A stretch of DNA of 29,844 nucleotides, from the IMG/VR virus record IMGVR_UViG_3300032324_000591, positions 1 through 29,844 of that record; one strand, given 5' to 3'. Under the pieces are notes generated by a model, which was not told the DNA's origin, searched no databases, and was given only the letters and a program-made list of their open reading frames with translations. The DNA is from a virus (taxonomy: Duplodnaviria > Caudoviricetes). This document shows positions 4,525 through 16,286 of this stretch, piece by piece; the stretch's first letter is position 1; every line of letters begins with the position of its first letter. Made by a program: the position numbers and the translations under genes.

Positions 4525-7500
4525 ATGGCAAAAGAATGGTGGGAAACTTACGCTCCGGCTGACGAGTCGAAGGACGAGTGGTGGTCAAGCTATGCCGTCG
4601 AGTCTGAAGCGGCTAAGCCCCAAGGGCGACGCGACGTCACCCCGTTCAAGGTAGACATCCAGCAGCCGCGCGCGGCCCCCGTGCGCCAGGCCGCAGCCGC
4701 GCCTGAAGTTTCAACAGAGTACAGCCCAAGCGGTGATGACTTTGGCTCGGCCATCATGGCCGCTGCTGCGCCTGCTGCCCCTGTGCGGTCCAAGTCAGTC
4801 CTGGATAATTTACCGCCAGTTGATCGCACCAAAGAACCGGGCTTTATGCTTCGGCCCGAATTCGTGGACCAGGTGCGCAACAGCTTTGCCAGTATCCCGC
4901 CTGAAAAACGCCGCCAGGCTTTGATCGACGCTGCCGCTGGAACAGACGCCACCGCGCAAGCGGCCCAGCGCATCCTGTTTGACGTGCAAAAAGAAGACAA
5001 ATTCCTTCAAGCGGAAGAGGGTAGTCGGCAGGGCATGATTGACATCGTGCGCAAGGCACCGCGTGTTAAGCCAGAATTAAAGCTCGGCAACCAGCCTAAA
5101 CCGCCAGTCGTTTTTCCAGACGTCACCCCTACCGTCCTGGAGCGGGCCGACGCGTACAAAACCTCTGAAAGCGAACGCATCGCAAACCGGCTGCGCCAAG
5201 ACGAAGCGACACGCACCGTTGTTGGCGCGGAGACCAGCCTGGAAGCGTTGGCGGACCGTGCCGACAGAGAAAGCCGGGACTTTAGCGCTGAAGCATTTGC
5301 CAAAGAAAACCCATACCGCGCCGCCCTGGAATCTGGTGGCCGACAAATAATTTCAGGGTTAGCAAACTCCATTCCAACTATTGTGGATTTTGCTGCTCGG
5401 GTTATAGACGCTACCAAGACTGGTGTTGATACGACCGGAAACTTGACGATGTCTTTTGACACAGACACGTTCAATAATCAAAACGTCCGCGCTCCTACAT
5501 ACCAGTGGGCAGACCGGATGGCCATTACGGCCCGAAGCCTAATGCCAGAAGCTGGTCGCCAGAATATGGCTTCTGCTTTTTCTAAGGGCGAGTTTGGTTC
5601 TTGGCTTGGTTTGAACCTAACCGCTCAAGCACCACAAATGGCTACTAGTTTTGTAGCCGCTATTCTTCCAGCCGCTCGGCCATTTCTTCTTCCCGCAATG
5701 GGCGCGCAATCAGCAGGCCAATCTTTTGGTGAAGGCGACAGCTCTTTGGGCGCTTTGATCAAGGGCGGCGCTGAAATTGTTGGTGAAAGAATTACGCTTG
5801 GTGTGTTTGACCGCACCATGTCTTCGCTTTCCAAACTACCTTTGAGCTTGCAAGCTCCCACCATTCAATCAGTTGGCCGAGCTTTGGCAGCAACGGGCAA
5901 AGTGGTAACGGCCCAGGGCGTTGTCGGGGCTTTAGAAGAAACGACCACGAAGATTTTGCAAAACGGGGTAGACCGTTATCTTGAAGACAAAGATGTTGGC
6001 CTGCTTGATCAAACCGCTGACGCCGCTGTTCTTGGCGCTTTCATGGAAGGCCCGTTAGCCCTTGTCCAAGGACGGGCAGCGTTTAAGGGCGGCGCAAGTT
6101 CTTTTGCCGACGCCCTGGCCGGGGACGTAGCCGGTGCTCAATTTGACCCGGCAGCGTTCGACGCCTACGCCCGTCGTGCCCTGGACGTGCAGTCATACGA
6201 TGCCGCCCTCATCCGGCCATACCAAGCAGCCCGAGTCCAAGAGGACCAGACCGCTCTCCAAACCTCGACCACGGCAACCGACGCGGCCACGGCAGCCGAT
6301 AACCTATCCGGTTCGTTAAACGAGCTTCTAGTGCCCTCAACGGCTATCACGCCCCTACCCCTTGACCCAACCCTTGACATGGGCCAAATGGCCCCTTCTG
6401 TGGGCCGCGCTGAGCCAATTCTGGACCTGGGCATTCCGGCCCCAGTTAGCAGGACTATCGAACCGGCCCTGGACCTCAACGCCCCAGCCGCTGAAGTGCC
6501 GGGGATTAACCAGACAACCGAACAACAGTTTGGCTTGGACAAGCTGCGCATTAACGCGCCCAGGCCGCAAAGCATCCAGGGCACGCCGGTCGCTGACCTG
6601 ACAGACGATCAGCTCCAGGTAATCACTGGCGACGAGACCGTCGCGCCTATCTCTCGCCGCAGTGCAGCAATTGAGCTGACCGCACGCCAGGGGGAGCAGG
6701 CACCCGCGCCCACACCTGTGGCCGAGACCCGCGTAATGACGCCCGAAGAGCTGGGCGCAATGCCGATCCGCGACAGACGCGCATTGGCTAGTCAGTTTGA
6801 TCAGACGGAGAACGAAGATGGCACTATTACATTCACAGCCAAACCTGGAGCTGCGCCAAGTACCCAGATTGTTCCAACCCCCGGAACAGAACAAACTCTC
6901 GGAACAGCGCCAGTGCGGGATGTCGGTAATCAGCCAGTCCTTGACAACGAAACAGTACGAGCAGATGCGCAACGATCTCTGGACCGTTGGGCCGTCGACA
7001 ATGGCCAGGCCATCCCTGCAAAGTTAAACCCTGCACCTGACGCCGAAACCAGAGCTGTCGGCACCATAGCCAATTTGCTGGGCAGCCAGTTTGGTACACG
7101 CGTTATCGCGTTCCACGACACCAGCCCTGGTTCTGTCCAGGGTGTGGCCGTTGGCGGCACTGCCTTTGTCAACACAGCCAACGTGGTGACCAACGTCGGT
7201 CGCGTGTCTTTGCATGAGCTAAAGCACACGATTGAGCAGATTGCGTTTACCGAAAAACAGGCTGGCCTGACCGACACGTCAGCTCAGAAATTCACGGCCC
7301 AGATCGACAGCATCTTCGACGACATGACCGAAGAGGGTAAGCGCGCCTACGTCACCAACTTCCTGCATGCCGCAGAGCTGGCCGCTCTTGACTCCACGCC
7401 CGACATAAAAGAAAGCCGCATCCAAGAGTTACTGCAATCTCCGGTCTTGCGTTCAGAGATGACCGCTGACTTCATGGGCAACCGCGCCACAGATAAAGCG

Positions 7501-10500
7501 TTCTGGGCCGACGTGGCCAAGGCTGATCCGGGTGGGTTCAAAGGCTTTGTGCAAAAGTGGGTAAGCGTCATCGACAATTTGATGAGCACTTTGCGCGGTC
7601 AACCTAAACTGAAAACTGAGTCTGCTAAAGTTGACCAGTACGTGCATGACCTGGGCAAAGCCAAGATGGTGGCACGCGAAGCGCTGATTGCATACCGCCA
7701 AGGAACGCTTCAGCAATTTGAATCAGCACCCGCCGCCAGCTTGCGGCAAGGAGAAATCAATGCACCGACCATCGGAACCCGGGGAAGTGAAAACCTACCA
7801 GGACCAACAGCGCAGGATCGACCAGGCTTTAGCGAAGATGGGGGCGGTCCGACCCCAACCTACGGAACCGCAAGAGCAGGCGCAATCTCCGTTGTCGGAA
7901 GACACTACTCAACGACTCCCCGTCAAACGCTAAGTGGAGCCTACTATGGACAAGGACTCAAGGGGGCAGAACGTACTCGCCTGGACAGTAGCACTGATCC
8001 TCGACTTAAAAACCGCGTCTACTTCTATGTTGACCAAGGCGCAGGTATTCGCCCCGAATCCGGGGTCGGCGGGTACGCACACGAAGCCAAGCTGGACAAC
8101 ATCTATGACCCACAGACTCGACTGATCAAACCGCAGGCCGACGCAAACGCGTTCGAGTCAGCGGTCATCAATGCAGGGTTTGACGGGTACGTTGCACCGT
8201 TTGGCAACGGCCAATCAGCCGTGGTGCTGCTGGGCCAGAAACACAAGGCCGTGCCTGTCAGGCAGATCGGCCAGCCCCGAGCCGCAGCTTTGTCAGCCGA
8301 GGCCGCGCCTACCACCCTCAAGAAGGGCCTGCTGACACGCGAGGCCAGCCAGGTCGACACCGGCAACATCCCCGGTTCGCGCATGCGCATGGGCACCCTG
8401 GAGATACCAGCGGGCCAGGTTGAAGCGGCCAACACCGAGATGGGGCGCATCGGCAGCGAAATACGTTTTGCTAAAAGGCAAGCGGCCCCGGCTCGGGTTA
8501 TGTTTGAGGTCGCGCCTGACCCCAACAACCTTGATCTCAAAACCCGCTGGGACGCGGTGCCCTTTGAGCGCAAGATTGAAATCAGCCAGCGCGTTGCCGC
8601 GAAGATCATGCCCCAGGTTTTCAGATTGGCCGGGGTCCGGGCTAAGATGACCACGCAGTTGGGCGGCTACCTAGAAGACACAAGCCCGTCTTTTGCGGCC
8701 ATAGTCCCAAGCAGCGCATCGGCTCAGCAGCTCATGGACGTGGCCCGCGTCGGCGGCTTTGGCTTGGCCCAGGACAGCATGATGGTTCTGGACTCCAAGC
8801 CTTTTGAGGGGTCTTCCCCTACAGGCTTGATCACCATCACGTTGCCTGAGAACATGCAAGGCCAGGAAGACGTGCATTCAGTCTACCGGGCTGTGCGCAA
8901 AGTGTCGCCTGAAAACATCAGTGGCCACACAACGGTTGGCCAAGAAATGGTTTTGGCCGTTCCTTCTGATAGGATGGCCGACCTTACATCGAAAATTGCG
9001 GGAGTGCTAAACGCTCGGCCCGAAAACTTTAGCATCGGTTTTGCGGAAGGCCACATGGCTTTCCCAACCAAAGAGGAGTACGACTATGGTAGTGAAACAG
9101 GGGCAGTATCTGCCGAGCTTTTTGCAAAACGGACAGAAGCTAGTCGCATCCGCCAAGAAGCCAGCGCCGCAATCGAAGCCGAACTCGCAACCGACGAAAG
9201 CGCCGGTGGGCGCAAAATAGACACAGGCCGTTATCGTAGCGTCGCGGACGCCCTTAGCCTTTCCCAAGCGGAATACGACGCCACCGCGCTGCCCCTTATG
9301 CTGGGGGGAACTAAAGGTAAAACCTTCCGCGCCCCCAATGTTGGCGGCATCCCGGAAATTGTGCAGTGGTTGGACCAGCGCCGGGCTGACAGCGGGTTGC
9401 CCAAGTTAGACCTCAACAAACCGGAAGACCGCACCACCTTGGCTAAGCTGCTGGCGTCTGAGGCCGTGGCGGCAATCCGCAGCGCGGGCAACGCAGTCGA
9501 ATGGTACGACGAGACTGTCGCTAAAACGCTACAAATCATGGCGGTCAAGTATCCAGAGCTGGACACCGATCCAAACGCACGCAATGCCTTTTTGCTGGCC
9601 GTAGCCATATCGTCCCAGACGATGGACGTTGAGGCCAATTTAAAATACGCGTCCCAGCAGTACGAACAATTCCGCAACACCGGTCAATTCCCAGAAACCG
9701 GCACTGGTAAATCCGCCCCGGCGATGGCCAAGAATTTTGCTTTGGCCAACGACGTGCTGGCTGATATGGGGCCGGGCTTGTTGCGTCGGTTCCTGCAAAC
9801 AGAATTTACCAAGCGAGAGCTGGAGACCATAGGCTTCCCAATTGGCGGCGAGTCAATGGACGAAAAAATGCTTGGCTCTGCTATCTTTGGACCCAAGATT
9901 GGTTTTGGTTTTTACAGCAACCTTTCGGGCAACTTTGAGCCGATCACCATGGACATGTGGTTCATGCGCACCGTTGGTCGTTTGGCCGGAACGCTGCCTG
10001 CATTTGACCCGGTCCTGTTCCCCAAGCAAGTGGCCAAGCTGCGCGCTGCCCTGGCAGAAACCGGCCCAGCCGAACGTGGCGTCTACGCTGCCCAGTTTGA
10101 TCCGGCTGCCGTCCAGGCCGCGATGGAGACAGACGAAGGGGCCGTCGCCCTGGCCCGCCAGGTGAGCAGCCTGCATAACCGCCAATTCATCAAAGAGCGC
10201 GCTGCGTTTGACTCAGGCACCCGGATCAAAACCCCCTTGGTTGGCGCGGCTGGAGCCATACTAAAATCGGCTGACAAACCAACTGACGCACCATCCAGTG
10301 GGGGTGAGCGCCAACGCTTGCGTGACGTAACTCGCCAAATGGTGGCTATGGTTGAGCAGCAGACAGGTAAGCGCGTGCCGCCAGCGGCCTTGCAAGCGCT
10401 GATCTGGTATCCAGAGCAAGAGCTTTACAAGAAGCTGGGCGCTGGTCTTTATGTGACTAGCCAAGACTATGCGGGTGCGGCAAAATCACTACTTACGAAA

Positions 10501-10845
10501 GAAGGCTTTGATGGAAAACGAATCGACACAGCAGCCAAACCTGGACCAAGACCAGCACGACAAGTGGCTGGCAAGCCGGTCGCGGGAACAAATAAGCAGG
10601 CTGGCCAGCCGGGCGGGCCAACTGGCCCGATCCAAGGAGCAGAGCGGGAAACTTTCATCCAAAGCCAAACTCCCCTTGAAGACATCTTCGCCGGATTAGA
10701 GAAGCGCGGCCTGGCCAAGACACGCGCCGAGGCTGCATTCACTGCACGCCCGGACGGCGCGCAAATAAAATATGTCCAGGAAAATTTCAACGACATCTTG
10801 ATCCAGCTTGAGGATGCGGACAAGGTTAAGATCAATTGCAAATAA
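4525..10845 (+). CDS. Giant polyvalent virion/ejection protein 1 (zincin peptidase, ART-like, SAM-lyase-like, HhH-GPD-like domains)
   Basis: 2106-aa ORF. Duplicated N-terminal EWW..YA motif. HELKH...EMTAD at ~7213-7470; HYS..RVYFY..GFDGY at ~7890-8250; LGGY..VAR..QDSMMV at ~8500-8800; WY..GPKIG..TMDMWFMR..LQALIWY at ~9480-10470. Confidence 0.85.
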   Translation: MAKEWWETYAPADESKDEWWSSYAVESEAAKPQGRRDVTPFKVDIQQPRAAPVRQAAAAPEVSTEYSPSGDDFGSAIMAAAAPAAPVRSKSVLDNLPPVDRTKEPGFMLRPEFVDQVRNSFASIPPEKRRQALIDAAAGTDATAQAAQRILFDVQKEDKFLQAEEGSRQGMIDIVRKAPRVKPELKLGNQPKPPVVFPDVTPTVLERADAYKTSESERIANRLRQDEATRTVVGAETSLEALADRADRESRDFSAEAFAKENPYRAALESGGRQIISGLANSIPTIVDFAARVIDATKTGVDTTGNLTMSFDTDTFNNQNVRAPTYQWADRMAITARSLMPEAGRQNMASAFSKGEFGSWLGLNLTAQAPQMATSFVAAILPAARPFLLPAMGAQSAGQSFGEGDSSLGALIKGGAEIVGERITLGVFDRTMSSLSKLPLSLQAPTIQSVGRALAATGKVVTAQGVVGALEETTTKILQNGVDRYLEDKDVGLLDQTADAAVLGAFMEGPLALVQGRAAFKGGASSFADALAGDVAGAQFDPAAFDAYARRALDVQSYDAALIRPYQAARVQEDQTALQTSTTATDAATAADNLSGSLNELLVPSTAITPLPLDPTLDMGQMAPSVGRAEPILDLGIPAPVSRTIEPALDLNAPAAEVPGINQTTEQQFGLDKLRINAPRPQSIQGTPVADLTDDQLQVITGDETVAPISRRSAAIELTARQGEQAPAPTPVAETRVMTPEELGAMPIRDRRALASQFDQTENEDGTITFTAKPGAAPSTQIVPTPGTEQTLGTAPVRDVGNQPVLDNETVRADAQRSLDRWAVDNGQAIPAKLNPAPDAETRAVGTIANLLGSQFGTRVIAFHDTSPGSVQGVAVGGTAFVNTANVVTNVGRVSLHELKHTIEQIAFTEKQAGLTDTSAQKFTAQIDSIFDDMTEEGKRAYVTNFLHAAELAALDSTPDIKESRIQELLQSPVLRSEMTADFMGNRATDKAFWADVAKADPGGFKGFVQKWVSVIDNLMSTLRGQPKLKTESAKVDQYVHDLGKAKMVAREALIAYRQGTLQQFESAPAASLRQGEINAPTIGTRGSENLPGPTAQDRPGFSEDGGGPTPTYGTARAGAISVVGRHYSTTPRQTLSGAYYGQGLKGAERTRLDSSTDPRLKNRVYFYVDQGAGIRPESGVGGYAHEAKLDNIYDPQTRLIKPQADANAFESAVINAGFDGYVAPFGNGQSAVVLLGQKHKAVPVRQIGQPRAAALSAEAAPTTLKKGLLTREASQVDTGNIPGSRMRMGTLEIPAGQVEAANTEMGRIGSEIRFAKRQAAPARVMFEVAPDPNNLDLKTRWDAVPFERKIEISQRVAAKIMPQVFRLAGVRAKMTTQLGGYLEDTSPSFAAIVPSSASAQQLMDVARVGGFGLAQDSMMVLDSKPFEGSSPTGLITITLPENMQGQEDVHSVYRAVRKVSPENISGHTTVGQEMVLAVPSDRMADLTSKIAGVLNARPENFSIGFAEGHMAFPTKEEYDYGSETGAVSAELFAKRTEASRIRQEASAAIEAELATDESAGGRKIDTGRYRSVADALSLSQAEYDATALPLMLGGTKGKTFRAPNVGGIPEIVQWLDQRRADSGLPKLDLNKPEDRTTLAKLLASEAVAAIRSAGNAVEWYDETVAKTLQIMAVKYPELDTDPNARNAFLLAVAISSQTMDVEANLKYASQQYEQFRNTGQFPETGTGKSAPAMAKNFALANDVLADMGPGLLRRFLQTEFTKRELETIGFPIGGESMDEKMLGSAIFGPKIGFGFYSNLSGNFEPITMDMWFMRTVGRLAGTLPAFDPVLFPKQVAKLRAALAETGPAERGVYAAQFDPAAVQAAMETDEGAVALARQVSSLHNRQFIKERAAFDSGTRIKTPLVGAAGAILKSADKPTDAPSSGGERQRLRDVTRQMVAMVEQQTGKRVPPAALQALIWYPEQELYKKLGAGLYVTSQDYAGAAKSLLTKEGFDGKRIDTAAKPGPRPARQVAGKPVAGTNKQAGQPGGPTGPIQGAERETFIQSQTPLEDIFAGLEKRGLAKTRAEAAFTARPDGAQIKYVQENFNDILIQLEDADKVKINCK
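7760..7933 (+). CDS. Putative nested +1-frame small protein (57 aa) upstream of the ART-like domain
   Basis: AAGGAG at 7748-7753, 6 nt before ATG. Encodes the helix-like VKTYQDQQRRIDQALAKMG, while the host frame here is a G/P/R-rich linker. Confidence 0.5.
   Translation: MHRPSEPGEVKTYQDQQRRIDQALAKMGAVRPQPTEPQEQAQSPLSEDTTQRLPVKR
9086..9220 (+). CDS. Putative nested +1-frame small protein (44 aa) after the SAM-lyase-like region
   Basis: GAGGAG at 9073-9078, 7 nt before ATG. Translation MVVKQGQYLPSFLQNGQKLVASAKKPAPQSKPNSQPTKAPVGAK. Confidence 0.4.
   Translation: MVVKQGQYLPSFLQNGQKLVASAKKPAPQSKPNSQPTKAPVGAK
10511..10699 (+). CDS. Putative nested +1-frame small protein (62 aa) after the glycosylase-like domain
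   Basis: GAAGG 5 nt before ATG. Encodes DQDQHDKWLASRSREQISRLASRAGQLARSK, while the host frame is a low-complexity G/P/Q linker. Confidence 0.5.
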   Translation: MENESTQQPNLDQDQHDKWLASRSREQISRLASRAGQLARSKEQSGKLSSKAKLPLKTSSPD

Positions 10846-10856
10846 GGACCCAAGCC

Positions 10857-11348
10857 ATGCTACCCAAAATGATCATCTCCGCCGATTGCAAAAAGATGCT
10901 GGACGAAGCAATCCATTCCGAGTTGTACGCATCCAACCTGTACAAGCACATTGCCAATCAGCTCCAGCGAATCGGGTACTTTGGTGCAACCAAATTCTTT
11001 CTCAAAGAAAGCGCGGACGAGCTGGAGCATTACCAGCGCCACGTTGAATTCCAGAACGACGTAGGTACGGTGGCCAAGGTGCCCATGATTGAGGCGATGA
11101 ATGACACCATCGAGACCCTCAGCGACGCCATCGAGACTGGGTACGAAACCGAAATGGAGTTGTACAACAGCTACAAGGAGTGGTACGGTCGGGCCTCTGA
11201 CGATCCAGTGGTTCAACAATACCTTTTGCAATTCCTTGAAATTCAGCGCACCAGTGTCGGCGAGTACGGCGACCTGCTGGCGCGCATTGACCTTGTCGAC
11301 CAAGACAAGGCTGGCATGCTCCTGATCGACCAAGAACTAGGCGGCTAA
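10857..11348 (+). CDS. ftn: Ferritin (non-heme, Ftn-like)
   Basis: SD AAGGA before ATG 10857. ELYASNLY...GATKFF...ADELEH...YETE...Q ferroxidase pattern and a GMLLIDQEL terminal helix. Confidence 0.9.
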   Translation: MLPKMIISADCKKMLDEAIHSELYASNLYKHIANQLQRIGYFGATKFFLKESADELEHYQRHVEFQNDVGTVAKVPMIEAMNDTIETLSDAIETGYETEMELYNSYKEWYGRASDDPVVQQYLLQFLEIQRTSVGEYGDLLARIDLVDQDKAGMLLIDQELGG

Positions 11349-11351
11349 GCC

Positions 11352-14300
11352 ATGGCGAAAGATTGCACGTACAGGTTCACCGACCGTGACGGCAAAGAGC
11401 GAGTCATCCAGGGCCAAGTCGCGTTCAAAGCCTATCTGGTTAACGGCGGCTTGGAACACTTGCTGCCTAGCGCGCCTGTGGCGTTTAGCGGCAAACAGGA
11501 AAACCTTAACGAGCGCTTTCGCCAGCAAATATTCTCTGACTTTGACGCAGCGGTGCGTGAGTACAAAGCGCTGCCCGACACCAAGAACGGCAAGCTGTTA
11601 GACACCGACCAGGTGCGTGAGCTATCACCGGAATACCGCGCTGACCGAAGCCTGGCACCTCAAGTGCATGAAGCTGCCAGCGCCTTTACCCAACGAGCGT
11701 TTGAAGAGCGCATGGCAAACGCGCCAGATGGGGCCTTGGTAATCTTTATGGCGGGCGGTGGTGGGGCGGGTAAGTCCAGCGCCGAGCACTTGCTCAGCGA
11801 CGCTATGGAGCGTGCCAATACGATTTTGGATGGCACGTTGTCAAGCTACGACAAGGCGTCTCGAAATGTGCAGCTTGCGCTTGACAACAACCAGACCGTT
11901 CGCATAGCCTATGTGTATCGCGAACCACTCGATGCTTTGGCCAGCGAAAAAGGTGGCGTGCTGGAGAGGGCCATGAAGCGTGGCCGACCAGTCACTTTAG
12001 AGGCTTTGGTTAAGGGGCACGTCGGGTCCAGCGAAACGGTTCGCAAATTGCAACAGGCTTTTGGCGACAACCCCAATTTTAAAATCCAGGTTATCGACAA
12101 TTCGCGCGGGGCCGGGAACGCGGTCATGTCCACTTTGGAGGACGTGCCCGCAGTCCAGCTCGAAGGTTTAATGGAGAAATTTAAAAATGCAACAGACCAA
12201 GCACTCGCCGAAGGACGGATCAGCGAAACGATCCACCGGGCAACCACGACCCCCTATGACACCCGCCAAGCAAATGGAGGCGCGGGCCAGCGCCCAAGCG
12301 TTCGACCGCGCGGTGAGCGCGAAGTTCAAGGGCGGGCTGAGCCTGGCCAAGCAGGATACCCCGTAAACCGGGCAGCTCAAAAAAACCCCGAAGCCAGCCG
12401 GGTTGAGGGCACCAGCGCCGAACGGTTCAAACGGACCGAGCAACTCCAGCAGGCCGTGGGCGATCTGCAAGAAGGCAAGATCACTCGCAACGAATACGAC
12501 CGCATGGTTGACGAGTTGCGCCCCGTCTATCCCTACGAAAAAGTTCCGGCGGTCACGACCGTTGCCGACGCCCGTTACGCCCTGGCCACGGGCAAAGGCC
12601 AGAGTCCGGAGAAGGCGGCCAAGTACGGCCTGCCGTCCATGACCCTGAATACCGGCGACTGGGCGCAGCTCCGCCTGGACATTCCGTCTTACCAATTGCA
12701 CGACGCCTGGGTAGTCAGTGTGCACACGCCCAAGTCCACAAACCGCGAGGTCCAGGCTGCCTACGACGCTGGCACCGTGGTGGGCTACGAGTCCGTGGCC
12801 GCGCTCACTGACGTGACCTTTGGCATGAACCAGCGATCCGCAAGCAAAATCGCTATGGGCACGTCCAAGGGCACGATCGCCACCATGCTGGGCAAGTGGG
12901 CGCCCATCAGCAAAGAAGACGCCAAGGCTCGCGCCGACGCCGCGCTGAACGACCCGGCCTGGACCCAGGTTGGCATGGACCCGTTCCGCCACAGCTACTT
13001 CTACGACCGCGACAGCATGCGCCCGGTCCTCAGCGCAGATGAGGTGATCCAGATCGGCCCCCTGGTCCTGGCCAAGAACGTGAAGTTTGGCCAAGACACC
13101 GACATCACCGGCGCGCCGATCATGTTCAGCGCCAAGCAAGACTTGCCGGTGGACACCAAGCTGGAGCGTTGGGCTAAAACCATCTTTGACAAACTCGGCA
13201 GCGTGGCCGAATCAAAAATCTTGGCCGAGCGTTTGCCACATCCGTCGCTTTCCATGGGGCCGGGGGTTCCGTTGGGCGACCGCCAGATGGTGGTGCTTGA
13301 TGGCCATGCCCTGGACCATGCAGCCAAACACGTTGAAGACGGCATCACTGCCCGCATGATTGGCCAGCTTCCTGCTGCGCTCAAGGACCCACGGATGGTG
13401 GCGTTCCAGGGACCGGGCCAGGCTTTGGTGATGTTGCCTTTGCGGGCTGCCAACGGCGCCCCAATCGTGGTGGCATTGAAGAAGGAGGAGGTCAAGGGCG
13501 GGGGCACTACGCTGAAAGTCACGCGCTTTGCGACCACGTACCCGTTGGAAAATTCCGCGTCTTACATCGTGCGCGAAATGAGAAAAGGCAACCGAATTTG
13601 GTTGCCTGAAGAAGAGGTTTCACGGCTCCGTGATTTACTGGGAAAGCTCAATGCTACCCAACCCCGAGGCACTGGCCCCGGCGTCACCCAAACACTAGCG
13701 CTTCCTCTTGCGAGGGGTGGCAACCAAGCCGTGAAGGACTTCAGTGTACTCTCTGACGCCGCTCTTGCCAAGAAGCAAACCAACGAAAAAGGCTGGGAGC
13801 GTGAAACCGAGACGGTTTCTGTGCCAAATGATGCAGAAAAACAACTGCAAGGCATAGCGTTTGCCAAGCGCCAGCCGGTCGGCAAAGAGACCGAGGGCTG
13901 GCTGCTCAGCCGTGATGAGCTGGGCCGCTTCCGTTTCGGTGCCGGTGCCAAGGCATACCGTTACGCAGCGGACGTGGCCAACGCGGTCCTGGACGTGGTC
14001 GGTATGAAACCGGTCAGCCCAGAGCTGTCCCGTGCAATGCGCAAGATGCGCATGGAAGTCGACAAAGCACAGAACCTGACAGTCGAAGTTGCCAAGACCA
14101 TGAAGGACTTGCCCGAGCAAGAGCGCCAGATGATCAGCGATGTGATTGAAGGCGAACTCAAGCGCGGTGCCACGCCACCCAAGCGAGTGCTGGAGATCGC
14201 CGCGTCTATGCAGGACATTATGTCCGAGCAGTCGGCAGAGCTGGTCCGCCTGGGCATGCTATCCAAGGACGCCGCTGGCCGCTGGGACGGCAAGTACCTG

Positions 14301-16286
14301 CCGCGTTTCTACGAACAGAAACTGGGCGACGAAACCAAAGCTTGGATGAAAGCAGTCAAGGGATTGCTGGGACGCAAACAAACCATGCAAGGTATCAAGG
14401 GCAGCAGCCTCAAGGCGCGCGGCATGTTTGAGACTGTACCGGTCGCTGACCTGGCAGACTGGGAAGCCGAGGGCTGGGCAGTGCGAGACGCTACCTACGA
14501 TCCAGCGGTCGATACCGAGATCACAGTGTGGCGCGACTACACCAGGACGGAGCGCGACGACATGGGCGAGATTCGCGATGCCATGTTCCGCTTTGTCATG
14601 GGATACAACAAAAGCCAGCGCGACATTGCACTGGGCCGCTTGTATGAAAACCTGGCCGCGACCTACGCAAACAAGACAGAACAGCCGGGCTATGTTCAGG
14701 TGCCCGCGACCAACGTCGAAGACACCTTTGCTAAGCGCTACGGAAAGCTAGGCGGCAAGTACGTGCCCAGTGAAATCTTGGACCAGTTGGTTGCGTTTGA
14801 TAGCGACATGCAAAACGACCTGACCAAGATTTACCTCAAGGGCTTGTCGATGTGGAAAGAGGGCAAGACCGTACTCAACCCAGTGGCCCACGCAAACAAC
14901 GTGCTGTCGAACATCACGATGGCCCACTTTGCTGGCGTGTCTTACTGGGACGCGCACAAGTACATCGGCTCTATCAAGGACCTGGTCAAGGGCGACGCGA
15001 TGGTAGAAGAAGCCAGGGAAGCCGGTCTGTTTGGCGGCACGTTTAACCGTGCTGAGCTAACCGAAGCCATGCCCGAAGAGCTGCGCGTCTTGGCCCAGAT
15101 GGCCGAGAGCAAAAGCAAGCGCGCTGTCGAGATGGTCTGGAACGGCCTGTCTTTGTGGCTGCGCAAACCACTGGGCAAAGCATACAACGCAGAAGACGAA
15201 TTCTTCCGTTACGTGGTTTACCGTGATGCGCGCAACAACGGCCTAAGCGTAGACGCCTCAGTTGACTACGCACTCAAGTACATGTTCTCATACGACGATA
15301 TGCCTAAGGGCGCGCGTGTGATTCGTGACATGCCGGTCGGCTTGCCGTTCTTTTCCTATACGTACAAGATCGTGCCAGCCCTGGTCAATACAGCCCTTGA
15401 ACACCCTGTCCGCTATGCTGCCCCTGCCGTTGCGATTTACGTGGCAAATGCGGCCATGTACGCCATTGCTGCAAGCCTTGGCGGCGGGGAAGACGAAGAC
15501 TGGTGGACCATCATCCGTCGATACATGACCGACTCCGAATTCCGCCAGAGAACCAAGGACCTGGAAGAACAAGAGCGCAAGAACCTGCCCGAATGGATGA
15601 GGGGCGCAAGTCTGTCACTGGGCACAGAGAAGTCAATCCGCCTAGGCACGGACGACCTGACCAATTTGCCCGTGTTCCTTGATGTCAGCCGTATCTTCCC
15701 CGGTGGCGATCTGTTCGACGCGCACAATAACGCTGGCGGCATTCCCTTGCTTGCGCCGATCACACCCAACAGCCCGGTGCTTACAGTCGCGTCGGCCATG
15801 CTTTTCAACAAGGACACATTCCGTGGCCAGGACGTTGTCAAGAAAACGGACACCGACGCCGAGGCTGCGCAAAAGCGCGCGGCTTGGATGTGGAAACAAA
15901 TGACACCGGCCATCGCCGTGGGCAACACGCACTTTGAGCGGGCCATGAATGTGATCGCAAATGTAACCGGCCAGTCAGTCAACGTGGGCCTGGCCGAGTA
16001 CACGGGTATTGGCAAGGACGGCCTGCCAATCACACCGGGCTACGCGGCCTTGCAAACTGTCGGCATCAAGGCCAGGCCAATCGACCTGGACACTTCAGAA
16101 AAGATTCAGAAGGCGCAAACGAAAGCCCTTATCCGGGAATTGGAAGCGCAGATCAAACAGTCTCAACGCTTGGAAAACAAAGGTGCCATCAGCCCCACAA
16201 CAGGTGAGGCAGAGCGCGAAAAGCTGCGCGAGAAAAAGCAGTTCATTCGTCAAGGTTTGACCGTCGAGGGCGAGGAGAAGGACTAA
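11352..16286 (+). CDS. Giant polyvalent virion/ejection protein 2 (zeta-type P-loop kinase, unknown domain, MuF-C/PBECR-like RNase, LPD38-like C-terminus)
   Basis: 1644-aa ORF. FMAGGGGAGKSS..ILDGTL..RGRPV..VIDNS; RLDIPSY..QVGMDPFRHSYFYD; KH..QLPAALKDPRMV..GAPIVVAL..ATTYP; C-terminal KTVLNP..EDEFFR..PFFSY..LPEWM..NKDTFRG helical region. Confidence 0.85.
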   Translation: MAKDCTYRFTDRDGKERVIQGQVAFKAYLVNGGLEHLLPSAPVAFSGKQENLNERFRQQIFSDFDAAVREYKALPDTKNGKLLDTDQVRELSPEYRADRSLAPQVHEAASAFTQRAFEERMANAPDGALVIFMAGGGGAGKSSAEHLLSDAMERANTILDGTLSSYDKASRNVQLALDNNQTVRIAYVYREPLDALASEKGGVLERAMKRGRPVTLEALVKGHVGSSETVRKLQQAFGDNPNFKIQVIDNSRGAGNAVMSTLEDVPAVQLEGLMEKFKNATDQALAEGRISETIHRATTTPYDTRQANGGAGQRPSVRPRGEREVQGRAEPGQAGYPVNRAAQKNPEASRVEGTSAERFKRTEQLQQAVGDLQEGKITRNEYDRMVDELRPVYPYEKVPAVTTVADARYALATGKGQSPEKAAKYGLPSMTLNTGDWAQLRLDIPSYQLHDAWVVSVHTPKSTNREVQAAYDAGTVVGYESVAALTDVTFGMNQRSASKIAMGTSKGTIATMLGKWAPISKEDAKARADAALNDPAWTQVGMDPFRHSYFYDRDSMRPVLSADEVIQIGPLVLAKNVKFGQDTDITGAPIMFSAKQDLPVDTKLERWAKTIFDKLGSVAESKILAERLPHPSLSMGPGVPLGDRQMVVLDGHALDHAAKHVEDGITARMIGQLPAALKDPRMVAFQGPGQALVMLPLRAANGAPIVVALKKEEVKGGGTTLKVTRFATTYPLENSASYIVREMRKGNRIWLPEEEVSRLRDLLGKLNATQPRGTGPGVTQTLALPLARGGNQAVKDFSVLSDAALAKKQTNEKGWERETETVSVPNDAEKQLQGIAFAKRQPVGKETEGWLLSRDELGRFRFGAGAKAYRYAADVANAVLDVVGMKPVSPELSRAMRKMRMEVDKAQNLTVEVAKTMKDLPEQERQMISDVIEGELKRGATPPKRVLEIAASMQDIMSEQSAELVRLGMLSKDAAGRWDGKYLPRFYEQKLGDETKAWMKAVKGLLGRKQTMQGIKGSSLKARGMFETVPVADLADWEAEGWAVRDATYDPAVDTEITVWRDYTRTERDDMGEIRDAMFRFVMGYNKSQRDIALGRLYENLAATYANKTEQPGYVQVPATNVEDTFAKRYGKLGGKYVPSEILDQLVAFDSDMQNDLTKIYLKGLSMWKEGKTVLNPVAHANNVLSNITMAHFAGVSYWDAHKYIGSIKDLVKGDAMVEEAREAGLFGGTFNRAELTEAMPEELRVLAQMAESKSKRAVEMVWNGLSLWLRKPLGKAYNAEDEFFRYVVYRDARNNGLSVDASVDYALKYMFSYDDMPKGARVIRDMPVGLPFFSYTYKIVPALVNTALEHPVRYAAPAVAIYVANAAMYAIAASLGGGEDEDWWTIIRRYMTDSEFRQRTKDLEEQERKNLPEWMRGASLSLGTEKSIRLGTDDLTNLPVFLDVSRIFPGGDLFDAHNNAGGIPLLAPITPNSPVLTVASAMLFNKDTFRGQDVVKKTDTDAEAAQKRAAWMWKQMTPAIAVGNTHFERAMNVIANVTGQSVNVGLAEYTGIGKDGLPITPGYAALQTVGIKARPIDLDTSEKIQKAQTKALIRELEAQIKQSQRLENKGAISPTTGEAEREKLREKKQFIRQGLTVEGEEKD
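12187..12366 (+). CDS. Putative nested +1-frame small protein (59 aa) after the zeta-type kinase; candidate antitoxin
   Basis: GGAG plus an A-rich 10-nt spacer before ATG. Translation MQQTKHSPKDGSAKRSTGQPRPPMTPAKQMEARASAQAFDRAVSAKFKGGLSLAKQDTP. Not in the ORF track. Confidence 0.5.
   Translation: MQQTKHSPKDGSAKRSTGQPRPPMTPAKQMEARASAQAFDRAVSAKFKGGLSLAKQDTP
13581..13607 (-). terminator. Intrinsic terminator of the antisense RNA
   Basis: Minus strand AGGCAACC-AAATTC-GGTTGCCT followed by TTTCT; the U-tract is short. Confidence 0.55.
13581..13736 (-). ncRNA. Putative structured antisense small RNA (~155 nt) nested behind the PBECR-like domain
   Basis: Bounded by a promoter and a terminator. 9-bp long-range stem TTCACGGCT/AGCCGTGAA, CCTC-GCAA-GAGG tetraloop hairpin, and two further hairpins. 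Confidence 0.6.
13743..13771 (-). promoter_or_regulatory. Internal antisense sigma70-type promoter
   Basis: Minus strand TTGGCA (13771-13766), 17-bp spacer, TACACT (13748-13743). Confidence 0.65.

Follow-up and report, generated by a model that had tools for sequence, protein, structure and literature searches.

Why would the gene of a probable phage ejection protein carry, antisense to the linker behind one of its enzymatic domains, a predicted promoter, structured RNA, and terminator, and what would such an RNA do? The question arises in a stretch of viral DNA of 29,844 nucleotides (Duplodnaviria; Caudoviricetes; positions 1 to 29,844 of IMG/VR record IMGVR_UViG_3300032324_000591), hereafter called the window. 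A first-pass annotation had read a complete RNA gene on the minus strand of this linker, proposed as an antitoxin or decoy substrate for the adjacent nuclease. The analysis described here, which is based on sequence comparison and structure prediction, supports a complete antisense structured-RNA unit, predicted from sequence, that is under selection and tied to the MuF-C/PBECR domain.

Genomic setting of the locus

The 29.8-kb virus record is approximately 54% complete. Pfam profiles mark a replication block with PolA, Enc34 SSB, DUF2800, primase, and SNF2 helicase. Two giant ORFs lie on the plus strand (4525-10845 and 11352-16286), with a ferritin-like gene between them (10836-11348, +), as is also the case in the sibling phage L001. 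Judging by its ORF and Pfam profiles, the second giant gene (11352..16286, +) encodes a large polyvalent protein of 1644 amino acids, a probable ejection protein, in which a Zeta-toxin-like domain, an L5 gp82-like domain, the MuF-C domain, and a C-terminal region follow one another. We infer its packaging and ejection from Iyer et al. 2017 (PMC5512222) and from a passage of a phi24B structure preprint (10.64898/2026.04.10.717836), according to which phi24B gp47 bears a MuF-C domain, is present in virions, and is a proposed ejection protein. PMC5512222 predicts toxicity and RNase activity for MuF-C/PBECR domains, suggests other targets too, and reports PBECR domains in up to 26% of polyvalent proteins.

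In GTDB, the window matches a single genome, a Limnohabitans MAG that holds a decayed remnant of the cassette, and this copy hints at a Limnohabitans-like host for the virus. The remnant (L016:2440-2780 and L009:870-1210, two near-identical sequences) lies in a genome island, and the gene upstream is one that we take to be gltX. Its nuclease core is deleted and its -35 box lost, with the RNA mostly retained. A phage collection searched with the window domain or RNA yielded no real match.

A predicted MuF-C/PBECR RNase domain

The domain preceding the linker spans amino acids ~600 to 760 (13149..13631, +) and is predicted to be a MuF-C/PBECR RNase from profile, alignment, and model evidence. 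Its match to PF18819 (MuF_C) at amino acids 662 to 753 scores 23.4 bits (E 6.8e-5), which is below the cut-off of 27.6, and the Atlas assigns it with 0.92 to MuF_C clusters at a recognition of 2100, under 2300. In a 44-row alignment, the candidate active-site residues His660 (13329-13331, +) and Thr728 (13533-13535, +) agree with the PBECR signature of His plus Ser/Thr: a His occurs in columns 59 to 76 in 43 of the 44 rows, and the Thr728 column holds S in 27 rows, T in 9, and N in 8. AlphaFold models the domain with a pLDDT of 86.5 from this alignment, against 31 from a 7-row alignment.

Foldseek with the domain model gave no match at E 0.001, and a PDB sequence search with the domain returned one unrelated match (E 0.78). 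In a wide fold search with VIA, the first 16 rows are all toxin-antitoxin or CDI toxin entries by title, led by BrnT (Z 5.5, rmsd 3.2, 76 aligned residues), RelE (5.4), and CdiA of Kp342 (4.8); the best Z falls in the range that the tool calls inconclusive, and every row is under the level that it calls clear. On the prediction of PMC5512222, toxicity and nuclease activity would be expected of the window domain.

Elements and fold of the predicted antisense RNA unit

On the minus strand, a -35 box TTGGCA (13766..13771) and a -10 box TACACT (13743..13748) are spaced by 17 nt, as the first-pass annotation had described, and this spacing places a predicted start near 13736. The predicted small RNA comprises ~156 nt including its terminator (13581..13736, -), as suggested by its fold, silent-site constraint, and covariation. 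This sigma-70-type promoter is the only promoter-like site in 12000-15500, where shuffled sequences yield 0.9 on average, so taken alone it is not above chance. The unit ends in an intrinsic-terminator-like hairpin with a U-run (13581..13607, -), which reads AGGCAACC-AAAUUC-GGUUGCCU and whose pairs have predicted probabilities of 0.87 to 1.0; six terminator-like sites were found against 5.0 expected.

The fold of 13745-13575 reaches -71.1 kcal/mol (z = -4.37; none of 200 shuffles was as good). This z is sensitive to where the bounds are set: for a fixed 160-nt segment at 13592-13751 it is only -2.0, so that folding energy alone is not decisive. The neighboring segment 13752-13911 is likewise more stable than its shuffled versions, whichever strand is folded (z of -2.8 and -3.3; 25 shuffles).

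In the predicted ensemble, most of the structure proposed in the first-pass annotation is well populated. The closing stem P1, which joins the 5' end (13726..13735, -) to 13619..13628 (-), has pair probabilities of 0.79 to 1.0. Hairpin P3 (13664..13681, -; CCGGGGC/GCCUCGG) reaches 0.99 to 1.0, and the AGC/GCU pairs of hairpin P4 (13639..13660, -), which present the loop AUUGA (13652-13648), reach 0.96 to 0.99. The GNRA hairpin CCUC-GCAA-GAGG (13704..13715, -) is present and conserved as a sequence, but its pairs have a probability of only 0.12 to 0.19, and a dominant GNRA hairpin was rejected as the main reading. The multibranch fold of the first-pass annotation is particular to the clade of the window, the conserved core being one hairpin loop on a long stem. 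By eye, an alternative pairing of the 5'-proximal GGUUGCC and AAGAGG with GGCAACC and CCUCUU near the terminator is also conceivable (13581-13730, -); the predicted ensemble retains the terminator. Rfam shows no family at gathering score in the window, only weak unrelated matches, and ARAGORN finds 0 tRNA genes.

Close homologues show constraint and covariation

At the protein level, twelve homologues have 63 to 100% identity. Besides the decayed copy, scanning viral contigs, metagenomes, and genomes turned up another four copies of the unit that are intact (L004, L005, L006, and L007); two 17-nt pattern matches (L013 and L015) were dropped as chance matches. The window and its close homologues each carry a single RNA unit.

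Across the five intact copies, 76 of 91 same-residue codons vary in the nuclease domain, against 6 of 32 in the RNA body and terminator. Divided by part, the RNA body has 5 variable codons of 26, the terminator 1 of 6, the promoter 3 of 5, and the sequence downstream 8 of 12. Taken whole, the RNA unit has 9 variable codons of 37, compared with 84 of 103 in the remaining sequence (Fisher p 7e-10, the sequences being related). It is the bases that are constrained, since amino acids change no less in the RNA body.

The stems covary as well. Six sequences were compared: pairing holds in 98.6% of 216 cells, and both partners differ in 7 of the 36 pairs. None of 500 shuffles attains the covariation score, and structures slid along the alignment are at most 52% paired. 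Hairpin P3 is swapped in sequence between subgroups with its pairing kept (both partners differ in 5 of its 9 pairs), and P4 has 2 of 3 pairs changed in this way. These counts amount to few events, since the sequences are related and P3 exists in essentially two variants. On the minus strand, every change confined to one side of a pair among the six close sequences is of the G-U type.

The -10 box is TACACT or, in L007, TACAAT in all six close sequences; it uses a GTA codon, which serves for only 9 of the 119 valines in the ORF. Variants of the -35 box in relatives are TTGTCA and TTTGCA. Covariation and promoter conservation, which the first-pass annotation had named as informative checks, are thus both found among the close homologues. 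By this homologue comparison, the minus strand of the window is confirmed to hold a real feature above chance, with the makeup of a predicted RNA unit.

Domain and RNA unit form one cassette

In sibling alleles from sequencing runs X3 and X4, which belong to two studies, position 13117 is joined to 13857 by 4 letters, a loss of 735 nt that keeps the frame. The missing in-frame cassette (13118..13856, covering both strands) consists of the MuF-C domain and the complete RNA unit with its promoter. The cassette-bearing allele co-occurs with the cassette-free allele in both runs, and both ends of the cassette lie at similar 'I-x-F-S/A-K' junction peptides. This supports the gain and loss of the MuF-C domain and the RNA unit together, as one in-frame cassette. 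A third allele in X3 and X4 has 231 other bases in place of the cassette (window 13079-13866). Of two further runs, X1 is an RNA run in which no reads fall on the cassette, and X2 is probably DNA.

A wider family of predicted MuF-C-linked hairpin RNAs

A model of the window-clade RNA (R1) finds only the window clade and has no match at eight distant loci. Distant MuF-C genes carry an antisense promoter match, a ~70-nt stem-loop, and a U-run, and the family peptide 'GLQLP' corresponds to the reverse strand of a hairpin with the loop AAUUGGA. PF18819 matches occur in 7 of 301 genomes in the family of genome G001 (8 places) and in 1 of 400 in its class (5 places). At 8 of the 8 places in the G001 family, an antisense TAnnnT box, weak at L023, follows the domain and precedes a long stem. 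In L020, a stand-alone gene, the RNA unit lies beyond the stop codon, so a conserved peptide cannot explain it.

Scanning IMG/VR with the hairpin GGGC-AATTGGA-GCCC as a 15-mer gave at least 120 loci (~170 estimated). Among these, 80 are long-flanked, of which 20 are duplicates, 3 lack an 80-aa ORF, and 57 were Pfam scanned; the other 40 are short-flanked and lay outside the scan. Among the matches listed, MuF_C is found on the strand opposite the hairpin at 46 of 60 distinct loci (57 scanned). From a DNA-picked set of 27 MuF-C loci less than 80% alike, 21 have a promoter scoring at least 8 at 25 to 42 nt before the hairpin, a distance chosen after the data had been viewed (28 shifted controls: mean, 0.36; maximum, 3). 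A U-run follows the hairpin in 23 (controls: mean, 3.5; maximum, 8). The outer arms pair with their own partners at -23.0 kcal/mol versus -11.7 with foreign ones, the own partner beating all 26 foreign arms in 20 of the 27 loci, and in 22 the antisense strand folds more stably than the sense strand.

Because this set had been picked by DNA and its distance window set post hoc, loci picked by protein were checked too. Sixteen were found and one incomplete locus was dropped; they represent one subfamily, and some lie on contigs shared with earlier loci. In each of the remaining 15, a -10 box, a long stem, and a U-run are present, and the loop conforms to RAUYGSM in 14. RNAalifold on 13 of them together with L025 and L063 shows 11 of 16 pairs compensated. 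The peptide varies (GLQLP, GLQLS, and GVQFP) while the pairing stays, as the stems GGGC, GGAC, GGAG, and GGGG each have matching partners. When 28 distant units were aligned with MAFFT and passed to RNAalifold, only four fixed pairs were found, because the outer arms are out of register; the cross-pairing control above was used instead.

Rfam gave nothing credible on 28 family loci, apart from one ordinary tRNA in L018. A literature search, largely in open-access papers, revealed no report of an RNA associated with MuF-C or PBECR. On these sequence comparisons, the predicted RNAs constitute a family that is undescribed in the literature searched, tied to MuF-C nucleases, and without an Rfam match.

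The family has members of several kinds. Phages phi24B (HM208303.1, near 54700-54780 on the minus strand), PhiR5_2, and Pmp11 carry the unit; in phi24B, an annotated antisense hypothetical ORF (vb_24B_51c; L167:696-1076) covers the predicted RNA gene and may be a mis-call over it. L027 and L029, the two folded, form longer multi-hairpin RNAs with AUUG-containing loops. They belong to a row of four tandem MuF-C genes of ~350 amino acids (L027-L030; G659:C16:12806-16234), each with an antisense TTGACA-17-TACYAT. Tandem RNA units spaced 63 to 69 nt apart occur in 6 of 21 family loci examined, several with variant loops. Exceptions to the motif are L026, with loop GAAC, and L162, where it is absent.

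Intact-looking units are also found in records lacking a MuF_C match (9 of 10 tested; most others are fragments). Two such records, G704 and G708, are rated 100% complete, and the unit in a further record, G709, is an apparent chance match of the pattern. G708, a 10.8-kb record with terminal repeats, has tandem hairpin units behind one promoter match (L062). At L020, L079, L136, and L120, the unit persists outside MuF-C reading frames.

The window RNA appears to be an enlarged variant within this family. In the 44-row alignment, the window sequence '...RLRDLL' ends where the family enters 'GLQLP', and the window continues with 'GKLNA'. At this homologous place lies the P4 loop AUUGA, which equals the family loop AAUUGGA minus two bases, and the window RNA has two extra arms and a separate terminator. 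The link between window and family is thus suggested by position and a short motif.

A proposed RNA antitoxin as the best explanation

We give slightly better than even chances to the reading that the predicted RNA is a protein-binding antitoxin of the predicted MuF-C RNase domain. In such a scheme, the host sigma-70 polymerase would make the minus-strand RNA irrespective of the state of the phage late genes, and the RNA would bind and block the predicted RNase encoded just upstream on the plus strand. The part recognized by the enzyme would be the apical loop, AUUGA here and AAUUGGA in most relatives, on its long stem. A cell carrying the phage DNA or building the virion would be protected by the RNA, whereas a domain delivered into a new cell would lack it on arrival. 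Transcription of the RNA and its binding to the enzyme are predictions of this scheme. When a domain sits midway through a giant reading frame, there is no room for an immunity ORF behind it, and a reverse-strand RNA gene in the linker would solve this problem of self-protection. Encoding the antidote antisense to the following linker would also make domain and antidote one in-frame module, movable between polyvalent proteins.

A trans-acting, protein-binding RNA is favored over antisense pairing because the loop is kept between distant phages while the stems are rewritten, because intact-looking units occur in records without MuF_C, and because tandem units occur, several with variant loops. 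Phage Mu gp30, whose domain is described as inactive in PMC5512222, has a 3' end at which neither a promoter nor a terminator is matched, a single case that counts for the antitoxin reading. The orphan RNA copies may be relics, comparable to L009 and L016. Weakening the antitoxin reading, the window loop is two bases short of the family loop, and L026 and L162 deviate from it.

An unlikely alternative is cis-antisense control of the type I kind, in which the RNA or its transcription would silence leaky mRNA from the polyvalent gene, or truncate it where the nuclease domain ends. The RNA does lie on the opposite strand behind a convergent promoter, with full complementarity to the mRNA. Many loops (UUGG, UUGA, and CUGA) moreover fit YUNR, the U-turn motif of antisense RNAs, which suits base-pairing control as well. 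A perfect cis complement, however, needs no loop conserved across distant phages, and neither the orphan units nor the tandem units with variant loops are in keeping with it. The UUGC variants break YUNR, and the L020 RNA is not part of the coding sequence at all.

Less likely again, the RNA would be a working partner or substrate of the enzyme and not its inhibitor, either as the cofactor of an RNP effector or as an anticodon-loop decoy. Such a role is suggested by a 7-nt loop on a 4- to 6-bp stem that places UUG, the Gln anticodon, at positions 34 to 36 in most family loops (CUG in L005), and by tRNase entries (CdiA of Kp342 and colicin D) among the fold rows. Against it, position 33 is A instead of U, several loops have C at 37, the variants UCG, UCA, and UGG occur, and the window loop aligns best as 5 nt. 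The tRNA mimic of the first-pass annotation fares no better: ARAGORN and Rfam detect no tRNA shape or cloverleaf, and since family loops begin with AA or GA, a tRNA or tRNA mimic was rejected as the main reading.

It is very unlikely that there is no functional transcript at all and that the stems function within the DNA or the sense mRNA, as a pause, processing, or recombination signal at the module border with promoter matches as peptide by-products; the sense strand does fold too (-60.3 versus -67.8 kcal/mol for the antisense strand) and one promoter match in 3.5 kb is at chance level, but the G-U-type changes favor the minus strand, promoter, stem, and U-run are in register in 21 to 23 of the 27 distant loci, and the unit persists outside MuF-C frames.

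Comparison with known toxin-antitoxin systems

The antitoxin reading recalls type III systems, where an endoribonuclease toxin is held by a small noncoding RNA, as proposed here for MuF-C, and some MuF-C loci share with them the tandem RNA units. In the classical systems (ToxIN, CptIN, and TenpIN), a repeat-array antitoxin lies upstream of the toxin and is cotranscribed with it, with a terminator between the two, and ToxI is pseudoknotted (PMC5086642). The MuF-C RNA, in contrast, lies downstream on the opposite strand, has its own putative promoter, is mostly single, and is nested in the toxin frame. The protein is MuF-C/BECR and not ToxN-like, and Rfam shows no match to a known antitoxin RNA family. 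Lacking an upstream repeat array and a shared promoter, the unit falls outside the classical type III definition, though it would work like a type III system. We regard it as a putative variation on the RNA-antitoxin principle, unusual in being nested antisense within the toxin frame.

The nearest prophage case is the AbiF toxin of a Clostridioides difficile prophage, which is neutralized in cis and in trans by direct binding of RCd22 RNA (10.1101/2025.04.15.648962). This too is a prophage-borne toxin with a structured RNA bearing conserved motifs. It differs in that the protein is of the Abi_2/AbiF type linked to Cas13 ancestors, has an abortive-infection role, and forms no part of a virion protein; reverse-strand nesting does not figure in the abstract. 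With the MuF-C/PBECR domains of PMC5512222, the window shares the domain, the His plus Ser/Thr signature, and the setting in a large virion protein. That article gives no RNA partner, and neither 'antisense' nor 'immunity protein' occurs in its main text. In the MuF polymorphic toxins of Jamet et al. 2017 (PMC5576092), the toxin domain is likewise virion borne, with a self-protection gene directly downstream. Protection there comes from a small protein ORF, and the main text uses neither 'antisense' nor 'RNA antitoxin'.

Among the features of the MuF-C unit, the small opposite-strand RNA with its own promoter and terminator, overlapping the toxin mRNA, is reminiscent of type I. Type I antitoxins such as Sok pair with the mRNA of a small toxic peptide. 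The MuF-C RNA differs from these in keeping its loop sequence across distant phages and in occurring also as orphan copies.

Implications for polyvalent ejection proteins

More tentatively, and at somewhat less than even chances, MuF-C nucleases and a ~70-nt reverse-strand hairpin RNA would make up a widespread, undescribed toxin-antitoxin class with the antidote inside the toxin frame. The conserved peptide motif 'GLQLP' would then really be RNA, and spare or variant copies would serve as immunity against the injected nucleases of rival phages. Orphan and tandem copies point to such RNA-based immunity between phages. The RNA unit gives a direct test of MuF-C as a toxin, and it adds an RNA family missed by Rfam and by annotation, although present in a named and studied phage, phi24B. 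If the generalization is true, then together with antisense units behind other toxin domains it would amount to a general rule of polyvalent ejection protein architecture.

Two observations concern such other domains. Behind the Zeta domain of the window (12150-12420, -), a weak antisense promoter match TTGAGC-16-TATCCT is seen at 12380, and L007 has the counterpart TTGTCC-16-TATCTT. The window, L006, and L007 each have an open antisense frame at this place. A nested antidote for Zeta is possibly encoded here. In the sibling phage L001, the N-terminal domain is swapped for another, presumably a RelA/SpoT-type nucleotidyltransferase-like domain, as we read it from a motif. Antisense in the linker of this protein (L001:1590-1850, -) lie a TATAAT, a GGAGG, and an ATG opening an ORF of ~76 codons, a possible nested protein antitoxin.
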